NCBI GenBank assembly: GCA_030390025.1 | Contig: CM059431.1 | Location: forward strand, 140,494,001 to 140,558,000 | Origin: Squalus acanthias | Lineage: Eukaryota | Direction of reading: 5' to 3' | DNA: 64,000 bases | Shown: one piece after another, positions 20,427 through 62,695 of the stretch | Numbering within the stretch: the first letter of the stretch is position 1 | Layout of the letters: each line of letters opens with the position of its first letter | Made by a program: the position numbers and the translations under genes | The notes under the pieces: model-generated | Database searches by the model: none | What the model was told of the DNA's origin: nothing | Seen by the model: the letters and a program-made list of their open reading frames with translations, nothing else

Positions 20427-20706
20427 ACATAATAGGCTTTGTAAAAATTTGAAGCTAATGGAATGAAATGGACAGTGGCAGCATGGATACTAAATTGGCT
20501 AGGTGAAAGGAAACTGAGAGTAGTCGTGAACGGTTGTTTTTCGGACAAGAGGACGCTAGATAGTGGTGTTCCCCAGGGGTCCGTTCTCGGACCACTGATT
20601 TTCTTGATATATATTAATGACTTGGACGTTGGTGTTCAGGGCACTATTTCAAACTTTGTAGACGACACAAAACTTGGAACAATAGTGAACAATGCGGAGG
20701 ATAGAG
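20427..20706 (+). mobile_element. CR1 LINE 'A', middle part, target of the ERV insertion
   Basis: ORF 20463-20711 (SGVPQGSVLGP, FVDDTKL) is cut at AGAG (20703-20706) by the LTR. Confidence 0.88.
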
Positions 20707-22373
20707 TGTAAGGGTTTTTGTGTGTGTGACACGCCTGAGGCTCTGTGCGTAGCCTGGGTGCTCGTGCGAGGTTAGGCCTTGTTGCCTGTTCTGGTCTCCA
20801 GCCAGCCTGGTATCACTAGACACCTGTGAGTGGTTCGACCCACTCGCCCTTACGGTTCTGACACTGGACTTAGATGCGAGAGCAATAACGCAGAGAAAAC
20901 TCAGGTAGACCCGGTTGAATAGTGCGAAATGGAAAATCTTTATTGCATATTATTCAAGATTACGAAATACATGTCATAAGCACAGATTAATGACAGTACA
21001 ATCTTACACGCAGGTATGTAACTAATTTTAGGGAAACGAGGAGCGCATGACACATCGAAAAAGGGGGCACACATTACAATTATCCTTAAAACTTCAACCC
21101 TCCCCTATTAATACCTGACCTAAACTAGATTTGTAGGATCGAGACTCATGCTCACCACTCGTGATAACTCGGAGAATTCCGAAACTCTGCTCGGATGTTT
21201 TTACCGCAGCACCTGACCACCCACGTGTTGATTTGGGGTCTCTGTACCCCACTTGTTTACACGTTTCTGCTCCGGCTAGCAGGCTGGACCGTCTGCTGTC
21301 ATGAAGATCTGTGTTGTCCTCGGAGTTCCGACACGACTCGAAAAAATAGTCTTCCTGTGCCCTCACGCCAGTTTGTAAAGCTCAAAGAATGGTCTTCCTG
21401 GGCAAGGAAAGTGTTTATTCGACCTACAGGCGCGGTCGGGGCTTACTGACCGTGGCGATACGTATGGTCGTCTTCTTCTCTTCTCATCTCATCTCATCTC
21501 ATCTCATCTCATCTCATCTCGGGCCTTCGGTTCCAACACCGTTTACCGACTTCTCGGGATGGTGTGCCCGTTTCAAGGCTTCACAGCCCAGTTCCACACA
21601 GATCTTCGCGGCAAGCCACGAGGTCGATCCTGGCGGATCAGAAAGTTCAATAGTCTTCTAGCAAGTCGAGCAGCAAGGAGTCAAGAGACAGCGTCGCAGG
21701 CGAAGAGGCAAGAGACAGATGCAAGAGCAAGCGGCAAGAGACAGATGGACGGTTGTACCTTTACAGTTATAGTGCTGCAATTCCTCTTTTCCCGCCCAAT
21801 CTTAATGTCTTTTCTTTTGTCAGGGTTTTGGCGCTCAAACTTCTTGTATAGGGTGATCTCCGTTTTAATGGGTTTCGGTGATACTTGTAACTGTCTGAGT
21901 ACCCGTTAATACTTCTCCCATTGTGTAACCAGTCAGTATTCTCCCTGGAGGGCTTTTGGGGCTTCCAAATGTTTCTGTAACTACCCGCAAACGGCTCTCT
22001 CATCGTAGAGTCGTGGGGATTTTGCATATTAATGTCTCTGGATGGGTTCTTGATCGCTCTGTACAATAGCCCTTATTCGCAGCTGGGAGACCGATTCCAG
22101 TATTTATGTGTAAAATGCAAACCCATTATGTCTTGTGAATTATCTCAAATGTGCTGAGTCTTGTCCGATCTCGCACAAATGTTTATTGGAACGCCATCTT
22201 GTCTGCTTATCGAAAAGTCTAGAATGTTCTGCCACGAGGCGTGGCGGCCATTTTACAGGATGCTTGTGTCCACTTTGAAAACCTGACAGCATTCTGCTGA
22301 AATAAAGCTGTTTGTACGAAACTATGTGTCTCCTCCTTATTTATAAAATCGCGATAATATTGCGAATTCTACA
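20707..22373 (-). repeat. 3' LTR of ERV (1667 bp)
   Basis: TGTA...TACA termini. Near-identical to 32215-33870. Minus-strand AATAAA at 20939-20944. Internal (TCTCA)n microsatellite at ~21480-21520. Confidence 0.95.
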
Positions 22374-23228
22374 AGAGATAGACTTCAGGAAGACAGGCTG
22401 GTGAAATGGTCGGACACGTGTCAGATGAAATTTAATGCAGAAAAGTGTGAAGTAATATATTTCGGTAGAAAGAATGAGGAGAGAACATATAAACTAAAGG
22501 GTACGATGCCAAAGTGGTTGCACGAATAGAGGGACCTGGGGCTATGTTTGCACAAATCGTTGAAGGTGGCAGGGCAGCTTGAGAAAGCAGTTACAAAAGG
22601 ATTACGGGATCGTGGGCTTCATAAATAGAGGTATAGAGTTAGAAATCAAGGACGTTATGATGAACCTATATAAAACACTGCTTCGGCACCAACTGGAGTA
22701 CTGTGTCCAATTCTGGGCACCACACTTTAGGAAGGATGTGAAGGCCTTCGAGAAGGTACAGAAAATATATACGATAATGATTCTAGCAATGAGGGTCATC
22801 AGTTACTTGAATAGACTGGAGAAGCTGTGGTCATTCTCCTTGGAGCAGAGAAGATTGAAAGGAGATTTAATAGAGGTGTTCAAAATCATGAGTGACTGGA
22901 CAGATTAGTTAGAGAGAATCTGTTCCCATTGACAGTATGTTCGAGAACCAGAGGACACAGATTAAGGTGATTGGCAAAAGAACCAAAGGCGACAAGAGAA
23001 AAAACTTTTTTACGCGGCGAGTGGTTAACATCTGGAATACACTGCCAAAATGGAGTTGGAGGAGTATCTGAGGGGGGGAAATGCAGAGCTAAGGGGAAGC
23101 GGCAGGGGAGTGGGACTAGCTGAGAGTCGGTACTGTCTTGATGTGCCGAATGGCCTGCTTGCGTGCTGTAACCATTCTATGGTTCTATGTAACTGACTAG
23201 ATGGGCTGCTTCACTTTCTCCTTTTCCT
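22374..23228 (+). repeat. Duplicated host flank (CR1 'A' 3' part), copy lying inside the provirus
   Basis: About 99% identical by eye to 33871-34724. Starts with AGAG and ends at ...ctttctccttttcct, where it joins ERV sequence just downstream of the env stop. Confidence 0.93.
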
Positions 23229-23272
23229 TCCGAGGCGCACGTGGCAAACGGGAGTGACGCCATTTTGTCTGG

Positions 23273-25624
23273 TTACACGGTGCTTTCATCGTGCACGCGC
23301 ACGTAGCGTTCTCGCCACTCTCCCGTGTTTTCGTTCTTGGTGAGGCGTTTGCCTCTTTTACAATGCACGACCAATAAGTATACCACAATAAACACTTGGC
23401 ATACAACTAAAATGTGGGAGGCTATCCTAATCCAGGAAGGCACTTCAATGTTGGTGAACAGATTCCACCATGGTGGAATTACTATGTCCAGAATTTCTGT
23501 CCCTATCTCGACAGTCTTCTGTTCTAGTGTGTAAAAATGTTTTTGTGATACCGCGACGGCTTTTAAAAGCTTGGTGAGGTGTTCAGGGAGAGGGGGAATG
23601 AGGTATCCGAAATGCGCGACGAATTGCTGCAGGTCGGTGAAGTTCTCTTTTACGGTAAGATGAACTGTGGATGGTTCAGGGATTGGGACAATTCGCTGTT
23701 GTGCTACTTGAACTTCCGCCCTGGGTTTGAAACAGAAACTGCTGTCACTCACCGGACACCGGCTACGGTTTCCATGTTGGTAGTGTTGCGCTGCAGTGGT
23801 AACACAATATGTTCCACCCCCGATGTATGCTACCTGTGGAGGCACATGATCTTGTGCCATTGCCTCCATGGTGCAATTCATGGGCTTGGCGCCAGCCGTT
23901 CTGAACCCGCACTGTGGTGTTAAAAAGGCATTCAAGTGCTGGGGACACAGTATTATGTGTGCTCCCCTGCCACGACAACCAGAGAGATCTGTACCTGTCA
24001 TCGTTTGCTCCCAGCGGATGATGTAAGGTGGAACCGCTGCATAGCGAATGTGGGCTCCCCCCTGAATGACACCAATGTTCTCTACTCGATACACCGGGGC
24101 GGGCTTTGTTGTGTCGCCCAAAACCGGCATACGTAACACTATACCCATAATGGTATGGTTTGATCGTCCGCAGTCCACGGGGACTGGGTATGCTTCTGAA
24201 GCTAGCCTGAGCTGGCACGGGCTTAATGTGTTCTGAAAAGGGTTGAGCGCCTGCAGGTGTTTGTTACTTATCCAGGACGGGACCAAACCTTGTTTTAAAT
24301 CCTCCAAATTACTGCAGCCCTCACCGAGTAACCACGCCCCGTAAAGCACGCACACCTCATTCTGCGCAGCCTGATTGGACGCATTCCGATCTTCCCTGAT
24401 CAGGGCATTTACCGTTCTCGCGTGTTTCTCCAGCTCTGCTTTAATTTCCTTTAAGTGGAGAGTCATGGCCTGGTCCTCGTGTAACCCAGACCCAACCACC
24501 TTATTTTCATCTGTGAGAATGCTTTTTAATTGCGTTTTTAAGCCATTAATCTGGGTCTGCAGCTCCACGCTGTCTAGAGCATTGACCACAGATGTACCTG
24601 TGTTGAAAGCAGTGAACGCGTCGTTCACAACACCCCTTCTTTGCCTCCCCACCTGATCCAAAACTTCATGTGGTGCGGTGTACAAACTTGTTTTATCAAT
24701 TTCCGTGAAATCGAACTCATAAAATTGTCTGAACATCTTGGTCAACAGGACCTGATACAACTGTTCCGTCTTTTTGGGGCACCACTCTGGTAACCGCACC
24801 TCGGTGAGATTTAAAATCACCGAGGCCACCACGTAATGTACCCCCTGAAATAGTATCTGGTCTGTTGGGACCAGTACCAAACCATTCCCGGGTCCCTTAC
24901 TGGTTTTAGGGCACCCTTCTTCCTTAGCTAGAACCACCGGAATCGTGGGCGGGGCTTTGCGTGGGCGCGTAATGAGTTCAGTGGCATTTACTGGGATCGG
25001 GGAGTATGGAGCTCCGCACCCCCTGGTGCTCGCATCCCACCTCATCCCCTGTCCGTTATCCTGCCATTGATTGATGAAAAATATGGAGATGCCTTTGGGG
25101 CAAACGTACTTTGACCCCCACATACATACATAAATTCCCTCATCCGGTTCCCACCATTTGTCCCAACAGACTCGCACTTGTCCGTTTGTCCCCGTAATTG
25201 TCCGATGGGTATTATTACCCAGTCACTCCCACTTGACCGAAGAGTTCCTCATGTTTTTGCTCAGCTTTCGTAGCCACCACCATCGGCTCAATGGGACATT
25301 CCCGTTACAAGTCAAACAAATCCGTTTTCCGACGGTGACGCTGATTCTGGGTGCGATGATCCTTACTTTGGGGCACAGTAAAGAAGTCTCTTGGTAGGCA
25401 AACCCCGATGTGCTGGAATACTCAGTGGAGTTTGTTCCCAGCCATCCTGGCCACCTTCCCTTGTGGAAATAGGTGGTGGTCTCCTCCGCCTCTCGTCTTC
25501 CGGTCCCATCCACCGTGATGGGGGCCGTGTCCCCGGAGCATCCAAACACCACGACATCCTTGGTGTGGCCTCGATAGGCCAATCCACATCCGATTGCCGC
25601 GAGCAATGCTAGAATTCGTTCCAT
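23273..25624 (-). pseudogene. env: ERV envelope glycoprotein (~783 codons; one in-frame stop at 25223-25225)
   Basis: Signal peptide MERILALLAAIGCGLA, then an Ig-like motif set. Furin site RQRR (24635-24646) is followed by a hydrophobic small-residue peptide, a heptad repeat, a Cys-rich region, a C-terminal TM helix and a short tail. The two ORFs are in the same frame. Confidence 0.88.
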
Positions 25625-25913
25625 CCTTCCTTGGTTCCTATGATCAGATAGAATGAGGTAGCCAGCCTCGCAAGAGTCTCTGGCTTTTGCGAAGGGTGAG
25701 CGGGTCCCCTGACCTCGCCTCACGTAAGAAGACATGTGTGCTGGATAAACTTTAACTAATCCTATCTCTAAAACTCCCATCATTTTACCTCTTTCTATTA
25801 AGCAAAATTAAACTACCGACTTAAACCGATTTAAAACTATAACCTCATCTAAAACTATAAACTTATTCTTAACCTTAAACTGTACAGCGCCGCCCGTTCC
25901 CAGGGCGGCCCAT

Positions 25914-28900
25914 TTAAATTCTGAAAAGGCTGCCACGAGCTTTTCCCGACGGTGGGAGGGCATTGACCCCTCCCTTTGATCTGCCGCAGCCTGTTGCTGC
26001 TGCGCTGGGACTGGACTCTCCCTGGGCTGCCTTAGACTTGAGCCTACGCCTTGGGACACTCTGGGGACTTGACCATATCTTCCTGGGCTGGGTTATCCGA
26101 CCTGACCTATGGAGAGTTACCGAGGGCAGGAACTCCAGGACCGACGGACCGGGTTCCGAGACTTCCACCGTGGTGACCTGTGGTCCCACCACAGTCGCTG
26201 GCTCCGCCTCCCCTGACTCCGCCTCCCTGAACTCGGGTTCTGCAGCTTGTGGCACCGCCCTACTTGGCCCAGTAGGCGGCCCTTCACTCGCAGTCCCTAC
26301 CTCCCTCGAGGGCAAAACGTTCAAGGCGGGCGGCTCGGGCTCTGAGCCTTCTATCGCCACGCCCTGTGGTCCCCCCACAGCGGCTGGCTCCGCCTCCCCT
26401 TGCTCCTCCCCACTGCGTTCGGGACCTGCAGCTTCGGCCTCCACCCTGTGTGGATCTCTATCTGCAGCCCCTGTCTCCCCTATACCTGAATCGGTGGCGA
26501 CCCTTTCGTCCTCCGATTCCAACTCCTCCTCGCTTGTGTCACTATCTTCGTCGAGCTCCTCGAACTCTTCCTCATCTGACTCCCAACCCCCAAAAAATAT
26601 CTCACATTTTTCTAGGATGTCCTCTCCCCTGATGCAAGCTGCTTTGCCTGCCTGTGTGCCCTGTGGCCCTACCTGGGGCTGCGACTCCCCACTCGCCGGT
26701 TTGGCCCCTGTGGTTGGCCCTTGTGCACCTGGCTTATACAGTTTGCACTGATTTACGTGGAACCACTTAGTGCGCCGGGGTACCTTTACGGCGTATACCA
26801 TGGGACTCGCCTTATCTACAATGCTGTAGGGTCCCATATACAGTGGTTCCAGACTCCCTACTCTGGCGTAGTTTCTGACCATGACCTGGTCTCCCACTTC
26901 CCACTCCCGCGTTTTGCGGGGTTCCAGCAACAGGCGATTGCCCTGATGCTACCTTCCCATGTTCCCAGCCGCCTGCTCATAAACCTGCTTCAGGCGCACC
27001 AAGAGGGTCTGGACGAACTTGTCCCTGCTTATCTCTTGGAGCTGACACACAGTGAGCACCGGCGCTAGCACATGGGTGGGGGTTCGCATGATCCTCCCAG
27101 TCATCACCTCGTGCGGGGAGTACCCCGTACTTTTCGACTGACTGGCCCGGACCCCCATGAGGACTAAAGGCAGAACCTCTGCCCATTTTTGGGGCGAGTT
27201 CATAGTCTCTTTCCTCAATTTCTCCTTCAGGGTCCGGTTCATACGTTCAACAATCCCGGATGACTGGGGATTGTGTGCTACGTGCCATTTCCCTTCAATG
27301 CCCAAAAGCATGAGGGTGGTCTGCATCACCTGGCCGGTGAAATGACCCCCTTGGTCTGACTCCACAAAACGGGGGAGTCCCCACCGCGAGAACACCTCCC
27401 GGACCAAGATTTTTGCAGTACCCAGCGCCGTAGCTGTTCTACAGGGGAAGGCTTCCACCCATTTGGAAAACACATCCACCAAGACGAGGCAGTATTTATA
27501 GCCTCCCTGGGTGGTGGGCAGGGGCCCTATAGAGTCGATCTGTATCGACTGCCATGGTCCCTCTACCCTCCTGACGTGCCCCATGGGCACTTTCCTTTTC
27601 TGGGGGTCTGGGTTGTTTGCAGCGCACACGAGACAGCTTGCACAGAACTCGCGGACCTGTTCCCTGAGCCCCGGCCACCATCCCGCTTGCTCTACCCGTT
27701 GCCAGGTAACCTCGGGCCCGGGGTGCCCTGCCCCCGGTCCCTCATGAGCCAACTGGAGGAATTCCCTCCTGTGCTGCTGCAGCACAACCCACTGCTCCTC
27801 GCGGAACAGCATGCCTTCCTTAACGGAGAGGGTTGCCGTACTGTACGGACCCTCTACCTGCTTCCCCTCAGCAAGGGTTCTGAGGACTGCTTTTAGGGCG
27901 GGATCCTGGTTCTGGACGGTCTTAAGGTCTAGGGGCAATGCTACCCTGGTGTTCCCGGGATTCCCGTCCCTGCCTTGGATCGCTGCCACGGGTCTGGGCC
28001 CATAGGGGTCCCAGAAAATGCCGTTGCGGGCGCCCTCCCTGGCTAGCGCATCCGCCTGCTGATGCACTCCCCACGGGGCTCTGTGGAGGAGTGAGCCTTC
28101 ACCTTATGGATGAAAATCTCCCCTTCCTCCCCTACTGCTGCTAGGATCATTTCCAGCAAGGGCTTCACCGTTAAAGGTCGCCCGTCCGCGGAGGTATATC
28201 CACGGCGGGACCAAATGGCCAGGTATTCCGTACACGAATTGCATGTGAACATACTGTCCGAGCAAATCGTGTATGGGGTTGGGAAAATTTCTGGGTGGGT
28301 AACGACGTACACCACTGCAGACAGCTCAGCCTGCTGCACGCTCATGGTGCTGGGGAGCTTAATCGCCAGGGCAAGGTTTGCCGCAGGGTCATAAACTCCA
28401 CACCCTGTGTGTCGTTCGCCAGCGGACACTGTGCTGGAACCATCAACATAAATCTCGCGCCCAGTGGGATGTATCCCGGCCCGCAAACCTATGTTGACTT
28501 CCCACACCCCTTCCACCGAACACTGGTGGGCTGTACCGGGGTATACCAAATTGGCTGCAAGCCTGGGCTCGCAAAGACCTTTAACTCTAAGATCCATCTG
28601 GGAAAGAAGAAGGGTCCAGCGCGCAATACGCACGCTACTTACGGTCCCATCTTTAATCCTCCCATCTAGAAGCATCTTAGTTGGTGTGTGATGGGTGAGG
28701 AGAGTGATGGGAGAGAGCCCTGTGAAGATCGCTGATCATTTCACAGCCCAATGCGTGGCTAAAAGGTGCCTTTCGCAATTGGAGAAACTTCTCTCCACAT
28801 CCGTTAACACCCTGGACGAATAGACAACCGGCCTCAGCTTGCCGTGACGCTCTTGGAGCAGCACAGCGCTCAAGCTGTCCCCGCTGGCAGCTACCTCCAG

Positions 28901-30404
28901 GAAAAACTCCTTCCCCCCATCTATGGCCCCTAAAGCTGGCGCGGTCTGCAGATCCCTTTTTAACTTCTCGAAGGCTGCCTGGCAGCCCTCGTCCCAAGAC
29001 CACTCCACTCCCTTATGGAGGAGTCGGAGCAGCGGCGCCGCTGTGGCCGCATAGTCTTCGATAAAATCCCTGCAGTAACCGGTCAGTCCCAAAAAGGACC
29101 TCACACCCCTTATGGTGTTGGGAATCGGTAACTCTTGCACCGACTCCCTCCTAGCCTTATCTATGGCTCTTTCCCCAGCGCGAATGGTCAGCCCCAGGAA
29201 TTTTACTTCCTGCTGACCGATACGTGCTTTCTTAGGGTTCACTTTAAAACCCTTTCTCGCTAGCAGCTCCAATAACTCGGCCAGCAGTGGTCCATGCTCC
29301 TCCCTTGAATCCGTAAATAGGAGCAAATCATCCACGTACTGCACTATCTAATTGGGCTGACTAAACTCCTTTAAACTTCCTGCCATACACTGATGGAAAA
29401 TACTGGGGCTGTTGTGGAAACCCTGTGGCAGACAGTTCCATGTGTATTGTTGTCCTTTGAAAGTAAAGGCAAACTTGTACTGGTCCTCTCGCCGCAGCGG
29501 GATGGACCAAAAACCGTTCGAGATATCCAGCACCGTGAACGTGGTCGCGGACGCTGGGATACTCCCTATTAGGTCAGCGACTGCTGCTACCGTGGGCGCG
29601 CAGGCGGGAATGTTACTGTTAAGGACTCTGTAGTCCACCGTGGCCCTCCACGAATTATCCGGCTTCCTAACCGGCCATAATGGGGAGTTCACGTGTGTGG
29701 CTATCGGCCTCAACACGCCCTGCTGCACCAAGGAGGACATTGCTGTCTCCATATCGGGTTCTGCTTCTTTGGGGAAGTTATACTGCTTTTGGGGCCGGGT
29801 CATGGGGTCCCCATCTACGCTGACCTCAAACCCGGTAACCCTCCCACAATCGTGCTTGTGGGTTGCAAACGCGTGCATATTATCTGACACGTACGCTTGC
29901 ATGTCCGTTGGGACATCCGCGACCATAAGCCCGAGGTCGTAGCCTCCGGATGGCTTCATGGTACACAGGGCCCCTGTTTCTTCCTCCCCCGGAATTACCA
30001 CTACCTCGCCTTCTCCACCCTTGGTCCCCCAGAGACAGTGATTCCTGAGGTCCACAAGGATCCCGTGCCCCGATAGGAGATCGGACCCGAGGATACCTCT
30101 CCCACCCCCCTCTTGCCATTTCATCAGTATGCACTTCCACGTGGTGTGGAGCGCTCCTAAATGAATGGCTAGCGGAAGGGAGAACGCGCCAGCCTGTTCT
30201 TTTCCCGTGAACCCCGCTAATGTGAATGGGACCTTGGTAGATAGCGGTGAGTCAAAAGGGCTATCTGTATGAATCACGGTGCAAGAAGCTCCCGTGTCCA
30301 ACAAATAACTACCCTTCTGTTGCTCTACCTCCATCTCCACCAGGGGTTCGCTTCCACGCATCATAGCTGAGCGGACACAGGTAGACGGGCTGCGCGGGCT
30401 CTAG
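25914..30404 (-). pseudogene. pol: ERV Pol (PR-RT-tether-RNase H-IN + long C-terminal extension); 3 stops, 2 frameshifts
   Basis: PR LLDTGAS. RT LDISNGFW, LPQGFHNSP, YVDD. RNase H YVDGS/AEL/SDS/KVKAH/ADALA. IN HHCC, IDSIGP, ESDQG, VERMNRTLKE, GPY. Stops at 29348, 28736 and 26949; frameshifts near 30347 and 28065. Confidence 0.95.
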
Positions 30405-32138
30405 TCATTGGGTACTTTTGGACGGGGCTGTGGCACCTGCGGGGCCGGTAGCAACCGCCACCCTTCCATGCACACTCATGAGGGTGCGCATGGCTCCCAA
30501 CACTGATTCGATCGCGTCGGGATGGATGGGTGCACTAGCTCCCCTATCAGAGACAGGCGCCTGGGCTCGGACCACCGGATTTTTATCCCTGGAATCCTTC
30601 CAAGGGTTCCTGCAGTTCTTACGCCAGTGCCCCGTCTTCCCACACCCGTAAGAAGCATTGCTGGCCTGCGGAGCGCGGTTACCCTCCTGATGCCACTCCT
30701 TTTGAGCCGGGGCTGCGGGTCGTACCTCATGCACCTTTCCCTTAAGGGGACGTGCTCCCGTACTCCTGGTATTACGGTACCCTATCGTGAGTCAATTTAG
30801 GACCGACTCCTCTGTAGTGGCGGGGTCAGTGGGATCAAACCACGCTTTTGCCTGCTCCCTGACGGCTGGCAAACTGTTGGCTACTATACACCTGAGCCAA
30901 TGAGTTAGACCGGCGCCGTCCAAATCGGTGCGCTCTGGCGCACCTGGGCAGCTACGCTGGTATACTGGCCACAGCCTGTTGGCGAAAACCTTCGGGGGTT
31001 CTCCCTCCATCTGCACTGTTTGTCCTAGTCTAACGAACGGACCTTCATCGTCCATTCCCAACACTTCTAGGACCTCATCTCTTAGCTCCCCATAGGTATT
31101 AGTTCCCCTCTTGCTCTCGTCTGAGAGACACTGAAGGATCGAACTATCTAGTGAGAATAACAGCATTTTTGCTTTTTCTCCATCGTCGCAGCCGTTAATG
31201 GCTGCGGTTTGCTCTACTTCCCTGAAATGTACGGAAGGGTCGTCTGACTCGGCCAGCTTCCGTACGTGACTGATCATAACCCTCAGCTGGTGTGCGCTGT
31301 GAGGCAACACAAGCTGGTTGAGGAGATCCCCCTCTGCCCCATTGATTCCGTTCGGGCCCCTTTTGAAACCCGTGACCGGACACAACGGTCCCGGCTTCAC
31401 TTCTACCTCAGTGGGCTCTTTCTTTACCTCTACCACTTCCTCCCTCACCCAGGTTGCCGAATAGCTGGGTGGCGCGGAGGGCATAGTGGCTAATACTTCC
31501 TCTGCTTTGTTCGGTGGGGATTTCTGAAATCCCTCATCTACTAGCGGCTGGTGTGCTGACGGGCTGATAAGGCACACAATGCCGTGCGCTTTGTTCACGG
31601 CCCTTTTAAGGTGCTCTATCTCTCTTTGGCAGACGCTGTGGTCGGCCCCCTGAAATTTATCCTCGAGGGCCATCTTATATGCCGCCCTAACCCCCGTTAA
31701 GCTCTCTTCCTGGGCTTTTATTTGGGCAGCTAGGGGGGCACATCGTTCCTTTAATCTACCCTCACTTAACTTTGCCTCAGTGACCTGGCACTCGAGGTAA
31801 TCTATTTTTGTTTCATGGTGGTTGGCGACTAACTGGCGTTCTTGATGCAACGCATTTAAAGTCGTGATGAGCTGCTGCCCCCCCGCGACCTTCTCGTCCA
31901 TTTCCACCACTAAACTCTTGATCTGAGCTGCCTGCGCTAAGATGACCTGGTCCGAAATTTGGACTTGTCTTTTATAGCACATCAGCCAGACCGCTTTCTC
32001 CACTGCCTTTTTATGTTCCTTGCTATCTGTCCACCTCTCGGCTGCCTCTAGTGGACGCTTATCCACCAGCAGGTCACTTATCCATTTCTTAGTCAAATTC
32101 ACTTTTCCAAACACATAATCTGCTATTCTCTCTTCCAT
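30405..32138 (-). pseudogene. gag: ERV Gag (coiled coil, late domains, capsid-like region, CCHC knuckle); one in-frame stop at 30792-30794
   Basis: ATG lies ~54 nt after the PBS. The two ORFs are in the same frame. Contains PSAPPSY and (S)YGCGKTGHWRKNC, a knuckle with its first Cys mutated. Confidence 0.88.
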
Positions 32139-32191
32139 GACATTTCACCCATTCATACCAGGGTCTAACACATTATTCTCTCGCTGCCAGT

Positions 32192-32209
32192 GTCCTGCCG
32201 CGGTCGCCA
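32192..32209 (-). promoter_or_regulatory. Primer binding site, tRNA-Arg
   Basis: Minus strand TGGCGACCGCGGCAGGAC, 5 nt after the 5' LTR. Complementary to ...GTCCTGCCGCGGTCG-CCA, which I recognise as a vertebrate tRNA-Arg(TCG) 3' end. Confidence 0.85.
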
Positions 32210-32214
32210 TTTTC

Positions 32215-33870
32215 TGTAAGGGTTTTGTGTGTGTGACACGCCTGAGGCAATGTGCGTAGCCTGGGTGCTAGTGCGAGGTTAGGCCTTGTTGCCTGTTCTG
32301 GTCTCCAGCCAGCCTGGTAGCACTAGACACCTGTGAGTGGTTCGACCCACTCGCCCTTACGGATCTGACACTGGACTTAGATGCGAGAGCAATAACACTG
32401 AGAAAACTCAGGTAGACCCGGTTGAATAGTGCGAAATGGAAAATCTTTATTGCATATTATTCAAGATTACGAAATACATGTCATAAGCACAGATTAATGA
32501 CAGTACAATCTTACACGCAGTTATGTAACTAATTTTAGGGAAACGAGGAGCGCACGACACATCGAAAAAGGGGGCACACATTACAATTATCCTTAAAACT
32601 TAAACCCTCCCCTATCAATACCTGACCTAAACTAGATTTGTAGGATGGAGACTAATGCTCACCACTCGTGATAACTCGGAGAATTCCGAAACTCTGCTCG
32701 GATGTTTTTACCGCAGCACCTGACCACCCACGTGTTGATCAGGGGTCTCTGTACCCCACTTGTTTACTCGTTTCTGCTCCGGCTAGCAGGCTGGACCGTC
32801 TGCTGTCATGAAGATCTGTGTTGTCCTCGGAGTTCCGACACGACTCGAAAAAATAGTCTTCCTGTGCCCTCACGCCAGTTTGTAAAACTCAAAGAATGGT
32901 CTTCCTGGGCAAGGAAAGTGTTTATTCGACCTACAGGCGCGGTCGGGGCTTACTGACCGTGGCGATACGTATGGTCGTCTTCTTCTCTTCTCATCTCATC
33001 TCATCTCATCTCATCTCGGGCCTTCGGTTCCAACACCGTTTACCGACTTCTCGGGATGGTGTGCCCGTTTCAAGGCTTCACAGCCCAGTTCCACACAGAT
33101 CTTCGCGGCAAGCCACGAGGTCGATCCTGGCGGATCAGAAAGTTCAATAGTCTTCTAGCAAGTCGAGCAGCAAGGAGTCAAGAGACAGCGTCGCAGGCGA
33201 AGAGGCAAGAGACAGATGCAAGAGCAAGCGGCAAGAGACAGATGGACGGTTGTACCTTTACAGTTATAGTGCTGCAATTCCTCTTTTTCCGCCCAATCTT
33301 AATGTCTTTTCTTTTGTCAGGGTTTTGGCGCTCAAACTTCTTGTATAGGGTGATCTCCGTTTTAATGGGTTTCTGTGATACTTGTAACTGTCTGAGTACC
33401 CGTTAATACTTCTCCCATTGTGTAACCAGTCAGTATTCTCCCTGGAGGGCTTTTGGGGCTTCCAAATGTTTCTGTAACTACCCGCAAGCGGCTCTCTCAT
33501 CGTAGAGTCGTGGGGATTTTGCATATTAATGTCTCTGGATGGGTTCTTGATCGCTCTGTACAATAGCCCTTATTCGCAGCTGGGAGACCGATTCCAGTAT
33601 TTATGTGTAAAATGCAAACCCATTATGTCTTGTGAATTATCTCAAATGTGCTGAGTCTTGTCCGATCTCGCACAAAAGTTTATTGGAACGCCATCTTGTC
33701 TGCTTATCGAAAAGTCTAGAATGTTCTGCCATGAGGCGTGGCGGCCATTTTACAGGCTGCTTGTGTCCACTTTGAAAACCTGACAGCGTTCTGCTGAAAT
33801 AAAGCTGTTTGTACGAAACTATGTGTCTCCTCCTTATTTATAAAATCGCGATAATATTGCGAATTCTACA
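32215..33870 (-). repeat. 5' LTR of ERV (1656 bp)
   Basis: TG...CA termini, adjacent to the PBS, flanked by AGAG. Differs in length from the other LTR by two TCTCA units and one T. Confidence 0.95.
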
Positions 33871-34724
33871 AGAGATAGACTTCAGGAAGACAGGCTGGTG
33901 AAATGGTCGGCACGTGTCAGATGAAATTTAATGCAGAAAAGTGTGAAGTAATATATTTCGGTAGAAAGAATGTGGAGAGAACATATAAACTAAAGGGTAC
34001 GATGCCAAAGTGGTTGCACGAATAGAGGGACCTGGGGCTATGTTTGCACAAATCGTTGAAGGTGGCAGGGCAGCTTGAGAAAGCAGTTACAAAAGGATTA
34101 CGGGATCGTGGGCTTCATAAATAGAGGTATAGAGTTAGAAATCAAGGACGTCATGATGAACCTATATAAAACACTGCTTCGGCACCAACTGGAGTACTGT
34201 GTCCAATTCTGGGCACCACACTTTAGGAAGGATGTGAAGGCCTTCGAGAAGGTACAGAAAATATATACGATAATGATTCTAGCAATGAGGGTCATCAGTT
34301 ACTTGAATAGACTGGAGAAGCTGTGGTTATTCTCCTTGGAGCAGAGAAGATTGAAAGGAGATTTAATAGAGGTGTTCAAAATCATGAGTGACTGGACAGA
34401 TTAGTTAGAGAGAATCTGTTCCCATTGACAATATGTTCGAGAACCAGAGGACACAGATTAAGGTGATTGGCAAAAGAACCAAAGGCGACAAGAGAAAAAA
34501 CTTTTTTACGCGGCGAGTGGTTAACATCTGCAATACACTGCCAAAATGGAGTTGTAGGAGTATCTGAGGGGGGGAAATGCAGAGCTAAGGGGAAGCGGCA
34601 GGGGAGTGGGACTAGCTGAGAGTCGGTACTGGCTTGATGTGCCGAATGGCCTGCTTGCGTGCTGTAACCATTCTATGGTTCTATGTAACTGACTAGATGG
34701 GCTGCTTCACTTTCTCCTTTTCCT
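33871..34724 (+). mobile_element. CR1 LINE 'A' 3' part (original flank of the ERV)
   Basis: Continues the CR1 broken at 20706 (LEYCVQFWAPHFRKD; tail ttctatggttctat) and runs on into unique sequence. Confidence 0.9.
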
Positions 34725-35019
34725 GTGTAACAGGCCCGAGAGGCTGTCACAATAAGTCGGTGGCGTGTCTCCTAACCATAAGCTTCACTCACATCGGAAT
34801 TTCGGTCATGTCTTTCCACTTTCCTTCCTGTTCCACACTGCAGTTTGCAGCTTCATTTTCTACAGGTACCCAGAGTCAATGCAAACGTGAATCTAATGCT
34901 ACATAAAGGGGATATTTCCGTTCACCTGGTATTGTTTAAAATAACCATCCTACTGTTTTCTTGAACAGTGAACTAATCAAAGCTGCATCAAGAACTGACA
35001 CTGAGCTCTAATGTTGGAT

Positions 35020-53951: not shown

Positions 53952-54689
53952 GTAAGTGGGAGGGACAGAGAATGAGTTTGGATTATTTAAACATCACAGA
54001 GCTGACAGGATATCAGATCTTAGAATCAGAGAATCTTACACAAGAGAAACACGCCAAATAGGAAAGAAATGGATAAAACTGAAAATATTGTGAATCTGAA
54101 ACAATGATATGAAGAGGTGAAAATACCCAGCGGATCCGTCAGAATCTGTACAAAGGACAGGGGAACGGTTCGTCTATAACACTTGTGTGGACTGAAAACA
54201 AAGGGAAACAGTTTTAGTGGGACTGGGAAAAGGAGAGATCAGAGGCAAAAGACAGGGATTAAAGGGAGGGTCATGAGTTTACTTACCGGGAAACTACTTG
54301 ACGTAAATTAAGGAACGATCATCTGTGGCGTAAATGATAGACATTTCAAGAACAAAAACAAAAAGGTAAAATGCTTAAAATGTATGAGAACCGAACAGGA
54401 AAACTAACTCCCAAAAAATGAGAATTGAAAACCCGACGCTGTGCAGGTTTTTCCTCCCTCTCCATCACCGGGGGTCAATTCCAACTTCGGCAAAGACTCT
54501 ATACCGCAGGTGGAACCTGCCGTGGAGCGTCACTCCCCGGGAGAGCACTTCAGGAAATTACAGCAAGCAGCCTGTACATTTCTGTCAGTTACCTTTAATG
54601 GAATAGAACTAAATGGAAATGATAATCGGGCAGGGTGTATAATGACGGTCGACCTGCTACCAACTTTCCCACATAATCTAGGTAATTTA

Positions 54690-55145
54690 CTCTAATCCCC
54701 AACCTCCTGCTCACTGCACATTACCGTTAATATCCCACCTAGTCTAATCCCATCCTCCTGCTCACTACCCATTACCGTTAATATCCCACCTAGTCTAACC
54801 CAACCTCCTGCTCACTACACATTACCGTTAATATCCCACCTAGTCTAATCCCATCCTTCTGCTCACTGCACTTTACTGTTAATATCCCATCTAGTCTAAT
54901 CTCAACCTCCTGCTCACTACCCATACCGTTAATATCCCAATTAGTCTAATCCCAAACTCCTGCTCACGACCCATTACCGTTAATATCCCACCTAGTCTAT
55001 CCCAACCTCCTGCTCACTGCCCATTACCGTTAAAAACCCACCTAGTCTAATCCCAACCTCCTGCTCACCACCCATTACTGTTAATATCCCACCTAGTCTA
55101 ATTCCAACCTCCTGCTGACTGCATGTGGTTAGTATCCCAATTAGT
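54690..55145. repeat. 51-bp minisatellite, ~9 copies (intronic)
   Basis: Unit ctaatcccaacctcctgctcactacccattaccgttaatatcccacctagt. Confidence 0.92.
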
Positions 55146-56234
55146 CCAGGTGTATTCTTCTGTTCACTCCCCATACTCCAGCATTCCTTTCTCTCCACGC
55201 AGCAGTAAAAATAGATTTTATCAAAAAAATGTCGACTTGCTTCCACAATAGTTTGTGGGATTGAATTATGCTTTCTAACCACCTCGTGTGTAAATTCATT
55301 TATCAAACTTCACCTCGAATTCTTCGAATTAGCCTTAATATGTGCCCTCTGGCCAATCAGTGGAAACTATCAGTAACTATTTATTTGATCATAACTCTTC
55401 AGAATCTGAAGACTTGCAGCAACTCCTCACTTAATCTGCTCACCTCTAGTGGAATGTGCCCAATGTTCTCAAATCGTATCTCTAATAGTAACTCCACATC
55501 CCTGGTAACATCCTAGTGCAATTACACGCCAGTTTTTCCATTGCTTTTCATTCTATAAATAGAGTGTCCAGACCTGTACACAACTGGGTAAATTACCTGT
55601 TCCTATGCTCTTGCTGTGGAACGTCACTCCCTAGGGGGGAACATGAGGAAATTCAGATTTATCAGTCTATCATTTGCCGTACGCTCACTTTAATGGTTTG
55701 ATTTCTGCACCATTGTGTTTACGGAGTGAGTGACTGGGGGATGAAATAGTGGTAGTTTCATAGTTTTGTAATTGGCCAGATTTTGCGGTAGAAATAAAAG
55801 TGGGGCTAACAGCGCTCACTGTCATTAAAGTGTAAATTGGACAGCAACTTCCAGCGACCGCACATGCGGAGTTAAACAGGAAAATCGGGAAGGTCCTGTC
55901 CGAGTTTCCCTGCTGCTCCCAAAGTTGCGCGAGAATGGTATCTCGCCGAGTAACTCGCCATTGAAATGCATGGAACGGCTTAGCATTACTGCACTTACCT
56001 GATAGATATACACACGAAACTCGCCAGGAAAAGCCAGGGCTTGCCTATTCCAGTGCACTTATTTGTTTAACGGCGTGATCAGTCTTAACTAATGCCAGAC
56101 AACTTCTCTTGCACAGAAAATTAAGTTTTACAAGCGTGGATCTCATTCCTTCGGATTTTAATTATTGTTGGAGCTGTACAAACAAAAATTCTATAATGTT
56201 TGTACCTTTTCTTTCTGTCTCTTTTTCGCTCCCT

Positions 56235-59914: not shown

Positions 59915-60174
59915 GTAAGTGATGAAATGGAGATTTCAATACATTTATTTCACTATAGAATCCGAATGTTTGACTGGAGCCGATTGATTAAAGATTGTCA
60001 GAATCTGGGAATGAGAGGTTCAAAGGCTAAGGAAATAGGATTGAACATTGTTTGGACACGTGATTAAACCACAACAGTTCTGCATAGATTCAATTTACAA
60101 TTAAGGCCGATTTTTGAATTATTGGGGACATTTGCAAATCTTGTCTGCTCCAGTGATTGCATCACACATCGCAT

Positions 60175-61170
60175 ACACGTGGCAGGATCCTGATACACTG
60201 CGAAATCCCATACACACCTGGCAGGATCCTGATACACTGTGAAACCCCATACACTCCTGGCAGGATCCTGATACACTACGAAATCCCATACACACCTGGC
60301 AGGATCCTGATACACTGTGAAACCCCATACACACCCGGCAGGATCCTGATATACTGTGAAACCCCATACACACCTGGCAGGATACTGATACACTGTGAAA
60401 TTCCATACACCCCTGGCAGGATCCTGATATACTGTGAAACCCAAACACACCTGGCAGGATCCTGATACACTGTGTAACCCCATACACACCGGGCAGAATC
60501 TTTATATACTGTGAATTCACATACTCACTTGGCACGATCCTGATCCACTGCAAAACCCCGTACACACCTGGCAGGATACCGATACACTGTGAAACCCCAT
60601 ACACGTTTGGCAGGATCCTGATACACTGTGAAATCCCATACACTCCTGGCAGGATCCCCATAGAGTATGAAACCCCATACACACCTGGCTGGATCCTGAT
60701 ACACTGTGAAACCCCATACACAACTGGCAGGACACCGATACACTGTGAAACCCCATTCAAGGCTGGCAGGATCCTGATGCACTGTGAAACGCCATACACA
60801 CCTAGCAGGGTCTTGATACACTGTGAAACCCCATACACACCTGGCAGGATCCTGATACACTGTGAAACCCCATTCAAGGCTGGCAGGATCCTGATGCACT
60901 GTGAAACGCCATACACACCTGGCAGGGTCTTGACACACTGTGAAACCCCCTACACATCAGGCAGGATCCTCATACACTGTGAAACCCCATACATACCTGG
61001 CGGGATCCCAATACACTACGAAACCCCATATACACCTGGCAGGAGACGGATACACTGTGAACGCCTATACACACCTGGTAGGATCCCGATACACTGTGAA
61101 ACCCCATACACACCTGGCAAGTTCCTAATATACCCTGAAACTCCATACACATCTGGCAGGATACCAATCC
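60175..61170. repeat. 39-bp minisatellite, ~25 copies (intronic)
   Basis: Unit ggcaggatcctgatacactgtgaaaccccatacacacct. Gives 13-aa periodic ORFs in several frames. Confidence 0.95.
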
Positions 61171-62695
61171 ATGTGAATCCCCAGGAACATGAGGAAAAGG
61201 TCATGTTATGGCTGATTTGAAATTGATTGGAGCGATTACCTCTAGCAGTAAAACAGACAAACTAAGAACACAGAAGCTTTTTGCACTGAAAGAAGCGTCA
61301 TTTCATTTAGGGGGATTTTGAATCCCAATTTACTGATTATCAGAAACATATTTGTAATTTTCAAAACTACATTGTAGGAAACTCGTATCCAAATGAAACG
61401 TTGGAGTTTAATAATTGTAACTGTTGAAATGAACTCTCAATCTTTTCTTCCCTAACGTAATACTGAGTGGAGTCGGCGGTAGTTCAATTTTAATTCTGAT
61501 CGTTTATCGGATGAGACTGTTATTTAAAAATAATATAAGTGTAAAATTACTGAAAGCTGATCGCATTTTCTGAAACACAACAGGAGGATGTTTAGGGGAA
61601 GAAAAGGCCACTTTTGTCCAAACCAGTCTGTACCTGTCAGAGATGAACCCACCTGCCCTCCTCTCAGTGTATCCACAGAAACACAACCAATTGTCTCTTT
61701 CCACTATTACACTGCCCCTTGGTGTCCTCCCTGGTAACTGGTCTCCCACTCTATTACCCTTTGGTGAAAATGATTACTCTGATTTCCCTTCTTAGTCCTG
61801 CTTCCTAGTGTCAGTTTTCTCTTAATTAATTGTGTTAATTGTGAATCTCATTCCGGCATTAATTATGTGACTTCCGTCAGAAATTCTGATCAATAATTCA
61901 GTATCCAAAGTCTCTTATTCCAAACTGTACAAATCTAACACCGCACCCTTTCCTCTGCCTTAATTGTGCCTTAATCATCTTATTTCTCTCTGCACCTTCA
62001 GCATTGCAATAACATTATTCCTGTGGATATGTGATTAGAAGCACACACAATACCTGCCGAGGATTTCGCACACTAACTGTGGAACTTCTGTCCATTCACA
62101 ACGTGTGCCTCTCCCAGCGCACACTACCCCAGATAATCTGCTCAAGGGTTGATATGGTAACAGTGCAAGTTCTGTCCATTCACTGTCTGTCCCTCTCACA
62201 ATACCCACACTAACCCAGGTAACTTGCCCAATGCCTGATACAGTAACAGTGGATCTTCTGCACATTGTCCCTCTCGGTGAGCTATCAATCCCGTTATCCA
62301 CTGCGGCAGAAGGGAAACACCACTGACAGTTTCAGAGATTGATCCACTAGAACCTCTACTGTCGTATAATCAGAATCATGTGTGTATTTGTAATGAGATG
62401 TCTATAACACAGGGCAGGCCGGATAGTATTAAACATCAGAGGGAAAATATCACCTTCATAGAAATCTCCATGTTCAGTGAATATTAGAATCAAGTCAGGA
62501 TTTGAAACTTTTCTCGGCCATTGTTCACTTTCAAATGAGGTATCCATTAACTGATATTTAATTTCTACACGCACCTCTATTGAAGCAGTGAATTAAATCT
62601 TGCAATATTTTACTGAACATTAAAAAGTATTGAGAAGATGTTTTTTGTCAATACCACTAACATTGCGAACCTCTTTCTGACTGTTATAATTGAAG

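Follow-up and report, generated by a model that had tools for sequence, protein, structure and literature searches.

A UGA-CUAG stop between gag and pol of an endogenous retrovirus of Squalus acanthias suggests Gag-Pol synthesis by readthrough

The gag gene of an endogenous retrovirus in the genome of Squalus acanthias ends in a TGA followed by CTAG, and the parent virus most likely made its Gag-Pol polyprotein by readthrough of this UGA, as the preliminary description of the locus had proposed (we put the probability at about 0.8, judging from sequence comparisons). The evidence for this reading is the in-frame arrangement of gag, TGA and pol, the retention of the stop, its type II context, the adenines at positions -1 and -2, the lack of a usable start codon for pol and a long stem-loop predicted downstream. 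In such a virus, gag and pol would share a single RNA and a single reading frame; the majority of ribosomes would stop at the UGA and release Gag, and perhaps a few percent would insert a near-cognate residue (probably Arg, Cys or Trp) and continue to give Gag-Pol. The signal would be the type II context CAA-UGA-CUAG, probably aided by the stem-loop. A UGA between gag and pol is already known; the part that appears to be new is UGA-CUA together with a predicted long rod at such a junction, and a literature search (weak on subscription journals) returned no report of UGA-CUA at a retroviral gag-pol junction.

The window, i.e., the whole stretch of DNA that was analysed (64,000 nucleotides; assembly GCA_030390025.1, contig CM059431.1, positions 140,494,001 to 140,558,000), carries the provirus on its minus strand, flanked by two 2.5-kb repeats that are 98.3% identical over 2,522 columns (Table 1). 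The same LINE RT fragment is present in both repeats (33911-34404 and 22415-22891), the purine-rich tract that precedes the 3' repeat is also found at the beginning of the 5' repeat, and no target-site duplication was found around them. The true limits of the LTRs may differ from those of the repeats, or the repeats may have a tandem origin. The primer-binding-site-like stretch is one that we take to be for tRNA-Arg(UCG); the tRNA of this presumed assignment is also a near-cognate reader of UGA, possibly a coincidence. Beginning with their residue 1 at 32210, Gag proteins, skate Gag among them, can be aligned to the window gag in a single frame that runs across both of its internal stops, two stops that the preliminary description does not mention. 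The nearest named Gag is that of a skate (60% identity; N terminus MATTKG vs MATAAG in the window copy), and the Pfam match of the window gag to zf-CCHC (E=0.0035) is under the curated cut-off. Within pol, Pfam matches were obtained for RVT_1, RT_RNaseH_2, RNase_H, Integrase_H2C2 and rve, and the alignment with the related protein P0007 continues at 83-84% through the stops at 29350 and 28738. A long acidic, repetitive tail follows the integrase SH3-like domain (26000-26750, minus strand). The env region had no match among Pfam and PDB sequences, likeness to the paramyxovirus fusion protein, a lokiretrovirus trait, being among the things sought. Scans for related loci gave none in viral contigs or prokaryote genomes and four in metagenomes (27-32% identity), and an Atlas search gave leads that were retrotransposon-Gag-like only.

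Table 1. Features of the provirus and of its gag-pol junction, in window coordinates.
Feature	Positions	Strand	Evidence or remarks
5' LTR-like repeat	32215..34724	minus	98.3% identity to 20707-23228; 2.5 kb; LINE RT fragment inside
Primer-binding-site-like stretch	32192..32209	minus	TGG-led, just inside repeat end; overlaps gag start codon
gag	30405..32210	minus	N-terminal part coiled-coil-like; capsid; a single zinc knuckle; window copy interrupted by stops (32147-32145, 30794-30792)
In-frame gag stop private to window copy (internal control)	30792..30794	minus	contigs
CAA	30408..30410	minus	adenines at -2 and -1 of stop
TGA	30405..30407	minus	gag terminator, kept; putative readthrough codon
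CTAG	30401..30404	minus	type II (UGA-CUAG) 3' context, classified after PMC13517186 (in part)
pol	25914..30404	minus	PR, RT (YVDD), tether, RNase H, integrase, SH3-like tail; several breaks in window copy
Protease coding region	30062..30404	minus	Pfam RVP E=1.3e-4; catalytic Asp codon 30298-30296
Predicted unbranched stem-loop, 86 pairs	30181..30402	minus	-94.8 kcal/mol, z -3.66, 0/200 shuffles
Apical, most stable part of the predicted rod, spanning protease active-site codons	30245..30320	minus	z -6.37, 0/200 shuffles
Frame break of window copy	30343..30348	minus	frame difference in 4/4 runs
env region	23273..25807	minus	ORFs
3' LTR-like repeat	20707..23228	minus	repeat comparison with 32215-34724

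On the minus strand, gag ends in CAA-TGA-CTAG (30410-30401), as had been described, and its frame continues past the stop with LEPAQPVYLCPLSYDAWKR, the protease motif LLDTGAS lying in another frame of the window copy. The 8,986-base interior of the provirus has one TGACTAG on its minus strand, that of the gag end; base composition gives a probability of 0.004 for CTAG following any given stop by chance (larger if any known leaky context is accepted). The type II signal is UGA followed by CUA or CGG, and TGA CTA G conforms to it; UGACUAG alone gives at least ~1.3% readthrough, and Arg, Cys or Trp are the usual insertions at UGA (PMC13517186, a 2026 review cited here and below from part of its text). 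The earlier statement that UGA-CUA(G) is a strong readthrough context in alphaviruses agrees with this type II signal. Adenines at -1 and -2 favour readthrough as well (PMC3159437, in part). The gammaretroviral type III context UAG-G is absent from the junction, where UGA-CUAG is found instead. In Moloney MLV, too, one in-frame stop separates the zinc knuckle from the protease and is read through to give Gag-Pol, but there it is UAG-GGA, with an 8-nt spacer and an H-type pseudoknot (PMC13517186). The contrast with gammaretroviral UAG drawn in the preliminary description holds for this junction, but UGA alone is not novel: SSSV (UGAAGA), ZFERV (UGACGA) and the cane-toad element RMEV (UGAAGU) have it at gag-pol, none of them with CUA (PMC13517186), and XtERV-S has a TGA between gag and pol (PMC8278194, in part). 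In all of these gag, UGA and pol are in frame as here, with readthrough inferred there too, and the parts of these sources that were covered describe no 3' structure at the junctions. An in-frame gag-UGA-pol junction is also known from Candida Tca2, where it gave no readthrough in a reporter (PMC2194720, in part), a point against the readthrough reading. The portions covered of PMC5210030 and PMC10699275 do not address the gag-pol junction.

The nsP3/nsP4 junction of alphaviruses (SINV, ONNV, CHIKV) has in common with the present one the UGA-CUA(G) and an in-frame polymerase downstream, and its long-range 3' stem-loop has a predicted counterpart here. In alphaviruses, readthrough is 3-9.5-fold higher with such stem-loops, which measure 126-177 nt (PMC13517186). 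We have folded the downstream region, as the preliminary description had suggested. Its first 60-120 bases are no better than shuffled sequences (z 0.4-0.6), but 30404-30170, a segment chosen after seeing the data, is predicted to fold as a single unbranched rod of 86 pairs that closes at 30402/30181 and takes up the 225 bases 3' of the stop, a continuous structure where in alphaviruses a large loop is closed by a short basal helix. We consider this a good prediction, made from one copy and not from covariation. The rod is strand-specific (the fold of 30221-30340 has z -5.57 on the minus strand vs -1.10 on the plus) and the longest of the provirus, where other rods reach at most 51 pairs (556 of 580 sliding windows, those whose best rod does not overlap it) and those of the plus strand 59 (290 windows); the best of 546 shuffles had 75. 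Among 20 choices of window round the stop, at least 78 pairs were predicted in 16 and the outer pair 30402/30181 in 11, and the rod was lost in four. These figures argue against a chance fold. The basal duplex is modest (11 of 437 positions at best), and other windows of the provirus reach z-scores as low as the region past the stop. A candidate pseudoknot of two stems, starting 7 bases past the stop, competes with the rod; 35 of 500 shuffles and 24 of 297 windows were as good.

It is quite possible, within the readthrough reading itself, that UGA-CUAG sufficed alone and that the rod is a chance fold or one that serves packaging, dimerisation or export. Along these lines, the strongest part of the rod lies 85-160 bases from the stop, and among eight listed variants 3' of the stop four keep the predicted pair, three are unpaired, one breaks a strong pair and none is compensatory. 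The stem-loop of PSIV has no stimulatory effect and that of CHIKV is unconfirmed (PMC13517186). The persistence of the rod across window choices, its strand specificity and its length are the points that weigh for a role of the structure.

Readthrough requires gag and pol to be in the same frame. The preliminary description had attributed their disagreement in the window to a one-base break near 30347, gag and pol being otherwise fused. We have aligned contigs from four runs of four organisms (X6, X7, X1 and X16) to 30180-30880, with 712, 111, 313 and 308 records in the four runs (about 55% of X1 covered). A frame difference from the window at 30347-30348 appears in all four runs; retention of the extra A by the consensus, which would have contradicted the reading, was not found. 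The share of depth with the difference at 30347 is 94.8/94.8 (all) in X6 and 1418/1639 (87%) in X7, and under two thirds in X1 (3227/7465, 43%) and X16 (1205/3356, 36%), where the difference does not account for part of the depth. Clipped contig ends at 30344 and 30348 agree with the break (by eye), and the sole listed record that bridges it with a margin carries a gap. On this contig evidence the frame break is that of the window copy, and gag and pol are in register in other copies. The tblastn match of P0011, a coelacanth gene model, runs in the pol frame to 30385, beyond the break, and counts against the readthrough reading.

The register also decides which start codons pol could have used. 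An alternative, for which the precedent is foamy Pol, made from a spliced mRNA (PMC7828637, in part), is that pol came from such a messenger or an internal start, the UGA being an ordinary terminator and the CUAG a chance occurrence. In the window copy, two pol-frame ATGs do lie 21-22 codons upstream of the catalytic Asp, at a position reminiscent of foamy viruses, and sites that weakly resemble acceptors have their ends at 30437 and 30367. Both ATGs, however, are 5' of the break and therefore not in the pol frame where a copy lacks the break. The first pol-frame ATG 3' of the break (30334) is 12 codons before the Asp, within the Pfam RVP match, so that once the register is restored no usable pol start codon is left. 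The nearest Pol relatives lack an early Met as well: it is first found 3 residues before the Asp in four frog relatives (P0008, P0009, P0010 and P0013) and 13 residues before it in P0007, in either case too late for a whole protease. In more distant relatives (P0022, P0025, P0027 and P0042) a Met is found 22-34 residues ahead of the Asp, in favour of the alternative. The peptide that follows the stop weakly resembles the protease N terminus of two of eight relatives (p=0.01 and 0.03, uncorrected, 24 tests). The claim that the junction speaks against a separate spliced pol mRNA holds as a matter of probability, the lack of a usable start making such a messenger unlikely, and membership of this element in the foamy group is at most putative. 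Readthrough would also explain why the annotated Pol proteins of frog relatives begin just 3 residues ahead of the active site of the protease.

The affinities of the element bear on the same alternative. A search of structures with the Pol model placed equine foamy virus Pol first (E 2e-79, 22% identity), in favour of a foamy-like expression; an entry at 9e-79 ties with it and WDSV is third. By sequence, pol scores 232 bits with Ty3, 222-230 with gammaretroviral RT and 190-195 with foamy viruses, and foamy integrase is the top among integrase scores. Foamy Gag is without a Cys-His finger (PMC7828637, in part), whereas a CCHC knuckle is found in the Gag relatives P0001, P0002 and P0134 and hinted at by Pfam in the window copy. 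Two trees were made, a quick one of 68 rows and another of 23 rows picked from it (LG+G4), both composed of sequences other than named foamy, FLERV or snakehead ones. In them the RT groups with proteins of Xenopus tropicalis, other frogs and coelacanth (SH 93 with 68 rows; 80/93 with 23 rows), outside the gamma/epsilon group and with the retroviruses at the split that divides these from Loki-type proteins (99/98). The labels "NYNRIN-like" had raised the possibility of a lokiretrovirus, which motif searches and trees ruled out: a clade of the RT with Loki was rejected in the 23-row set (AU p=0.004 for the group and 0.013 for the window alone), the Loki labels being based on identity of motifs with the lokiretrovirus supplement, judged by eye, and on clade in the 68-row tree. 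The spacing from protease to RT is about 320 residues vs about 700 in Loki-type proteins. A tether plus RNase H (RT_RNaseH_2 and RNase_H), by which lokiretroviruses are recognised, is present, and to our knowledge this combination is common to all retroviruses. The likely match, which we offer as a lead, is the shark-frog clade of foamy-like ERVs reported from pol alone (CmiFLERV and XtrFLERV; PMC5512871, in part), a grouping of deep-branching Pol like that of our trees. The Gag part of P0011 has a Gly/Arg-rich stretch and is without zinc knuckle, as in foamy Gag; its RT nonetheless groups with that of the window element.

If the TGA were a scar, the virus would have had a fused Gag-Pol with an Arg codon at this place, and decay of its CpG would have produced the TGA, either following integration or already in the founder that gave rise to a burst of copies. 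The same contigs speak to this. They drop rare variants, and the differences considered are the best-supported 40 of 168 rows; among these there is none at 30352-30416, a stretch that includes the junction and is covered there in all four runs, and no sense codon appears at 30405-30407. Since each of the 40 rows is a majority in at least one run, there is probably no run with a majority change in that stretch. The in-frame stop at 30794, which serves as an internal control, is missing from all depth in the four runs (10, 10, 13 and 16 contigs). Three of the four runs have two contigs each whose junction with the window sequence is at 30408; their gag tails are diverged, have an open frame as far as the stop and finish with an A (by eye), and from the place where their match ends they probably carry TGA-CTAG too. 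Gag proteins tell the same: the six full-tailed relatives examined (P0001, P0005 and P0006 of skate at 56-57% identity, P0002 at 45%, P0134 and P0231 at 34%; three sequence clusters, known as proteins only) all end 12-13 residues past a shared C-terminal motif, vs 12 in the window gag; P0003, P0004 and P0138 end earlier. No Gag-Pol fusion was found among the capsid-matching members of 66 profile-free matches to P0001. What favours decay is that the other stops in the window gag are private transitions, that P0011 runs from Gag into Pol with a Gln at the equivalent place (aligned by eye), that Loki-Pfl has CGA-CTA at the matching site (PMC7947760, in part) and that in chikungunya virus CGA and UGA take each other's place in this context (PMC13517186), a CGA alternative in which alphaviruses and the lokiretrovirus set are alike. 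A stop unchanged in four organisms where the control differs everywhere, and an end position shared by Gag proteins at 34-57% identity, make decay very improbable; at the sequence level the junction TGA is confirmed as retained, and not as private decay of the window copy. Equally improbable is access to pol by a programmed frameshift, selenocysteine insertion or RNA editing of the stop within the rod: the two frames of the window copy recall the first, but that difference belongs to this copy and there is no slippery heptamer near the stop (the sole one in 30250-30560 is at 30260, inside the protease); no Rfam family, SECIS included, matched 20500-35000 at E<=0.5; and the third has in its favour one fold that places the stop inside a duplex (92 pairs, 30409/30164).

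Readthrough at UGA-CUA may reach beyond this lineage. In the part covered of the lokiretrovirus supplement (PMC7947760), gag ends in TGA-CTA in frame with pol in at least 7 of 24 elements (by eye; Ofa, Cne, Pyo, Bsp, Dcl, Lro and probably Sau, with CGA-CTA in Loki-Pfl). These junctions were identified by position and frame; as a count, the 17 TGACTAG of the supplement are near chance, and one of ten sequences annotated as fused was covered. The passage covered of Loki-Lca has no TGA-CTA motif, and Loki-Ape is 5'-truncated. Readthrough, stop codon and frameshift are not mentioned in the main text of PMC7947760, nor are readthrough or stop codon in the portion covered of its supplement. Lokiretroviruses are like the present element in the dual RNase H pol and the TGA-CTA junction and unlike it in an RT from across the Loki split. 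As they are the sister group of all other retroviruses, the presence of UGA-CUA in them and in a deep-branching lineage across the split, there with a predicted long 3' rod like the stem-loop of alphaviruses, would fit, tentatively and with considerable doubt, an ancestral use of UGA-CUA readthrough for Gag-Pol at the root of retroviruses. If this were true, it would have been replaced later by the other routes to Pol: readthrough of an amber codon with a pseudoknot, frameshifting, and the spliced pol mRNA of foamy viruses. The pattern in the two lineages could also mean that they converged on the context that leaks most or that gag modules were exchanged. Because UGA-CUA is also present, unremarked, in lokiretroviruses, the ancestral state can be tested. 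For epsilonretroviruses, readthrough is described as unverified and its cis-elements as unclear (PMC13517186). A retrovirus in which a type II signal is combined with a long stem-loop would bring together two recoding classes that have been studied apart.

Several minor observations concern the surroundings of these features. Contig depth peaks at 30348-30395, with loose contig ends near 30348-30373; we have set aside a conserved RNA element as its explanation, as a high-copy relative devoid of pol could yield the same. The Gag of Loki-Tfu has an ambiguous residue followed by Leu-Ser where Loki-Dcl and Loki-Lro have TGA-CTA-AGC (PMC7947760, in part). In the integrase region, a 120-base window (27461-27580, minus strand) has z -5.6, the first of 147, and is as unusual as the hairpin past the stop. 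The window also contains tandem arrays at 60052-61247 (39-base period) and 54671-55174 (period of about 51 bases).
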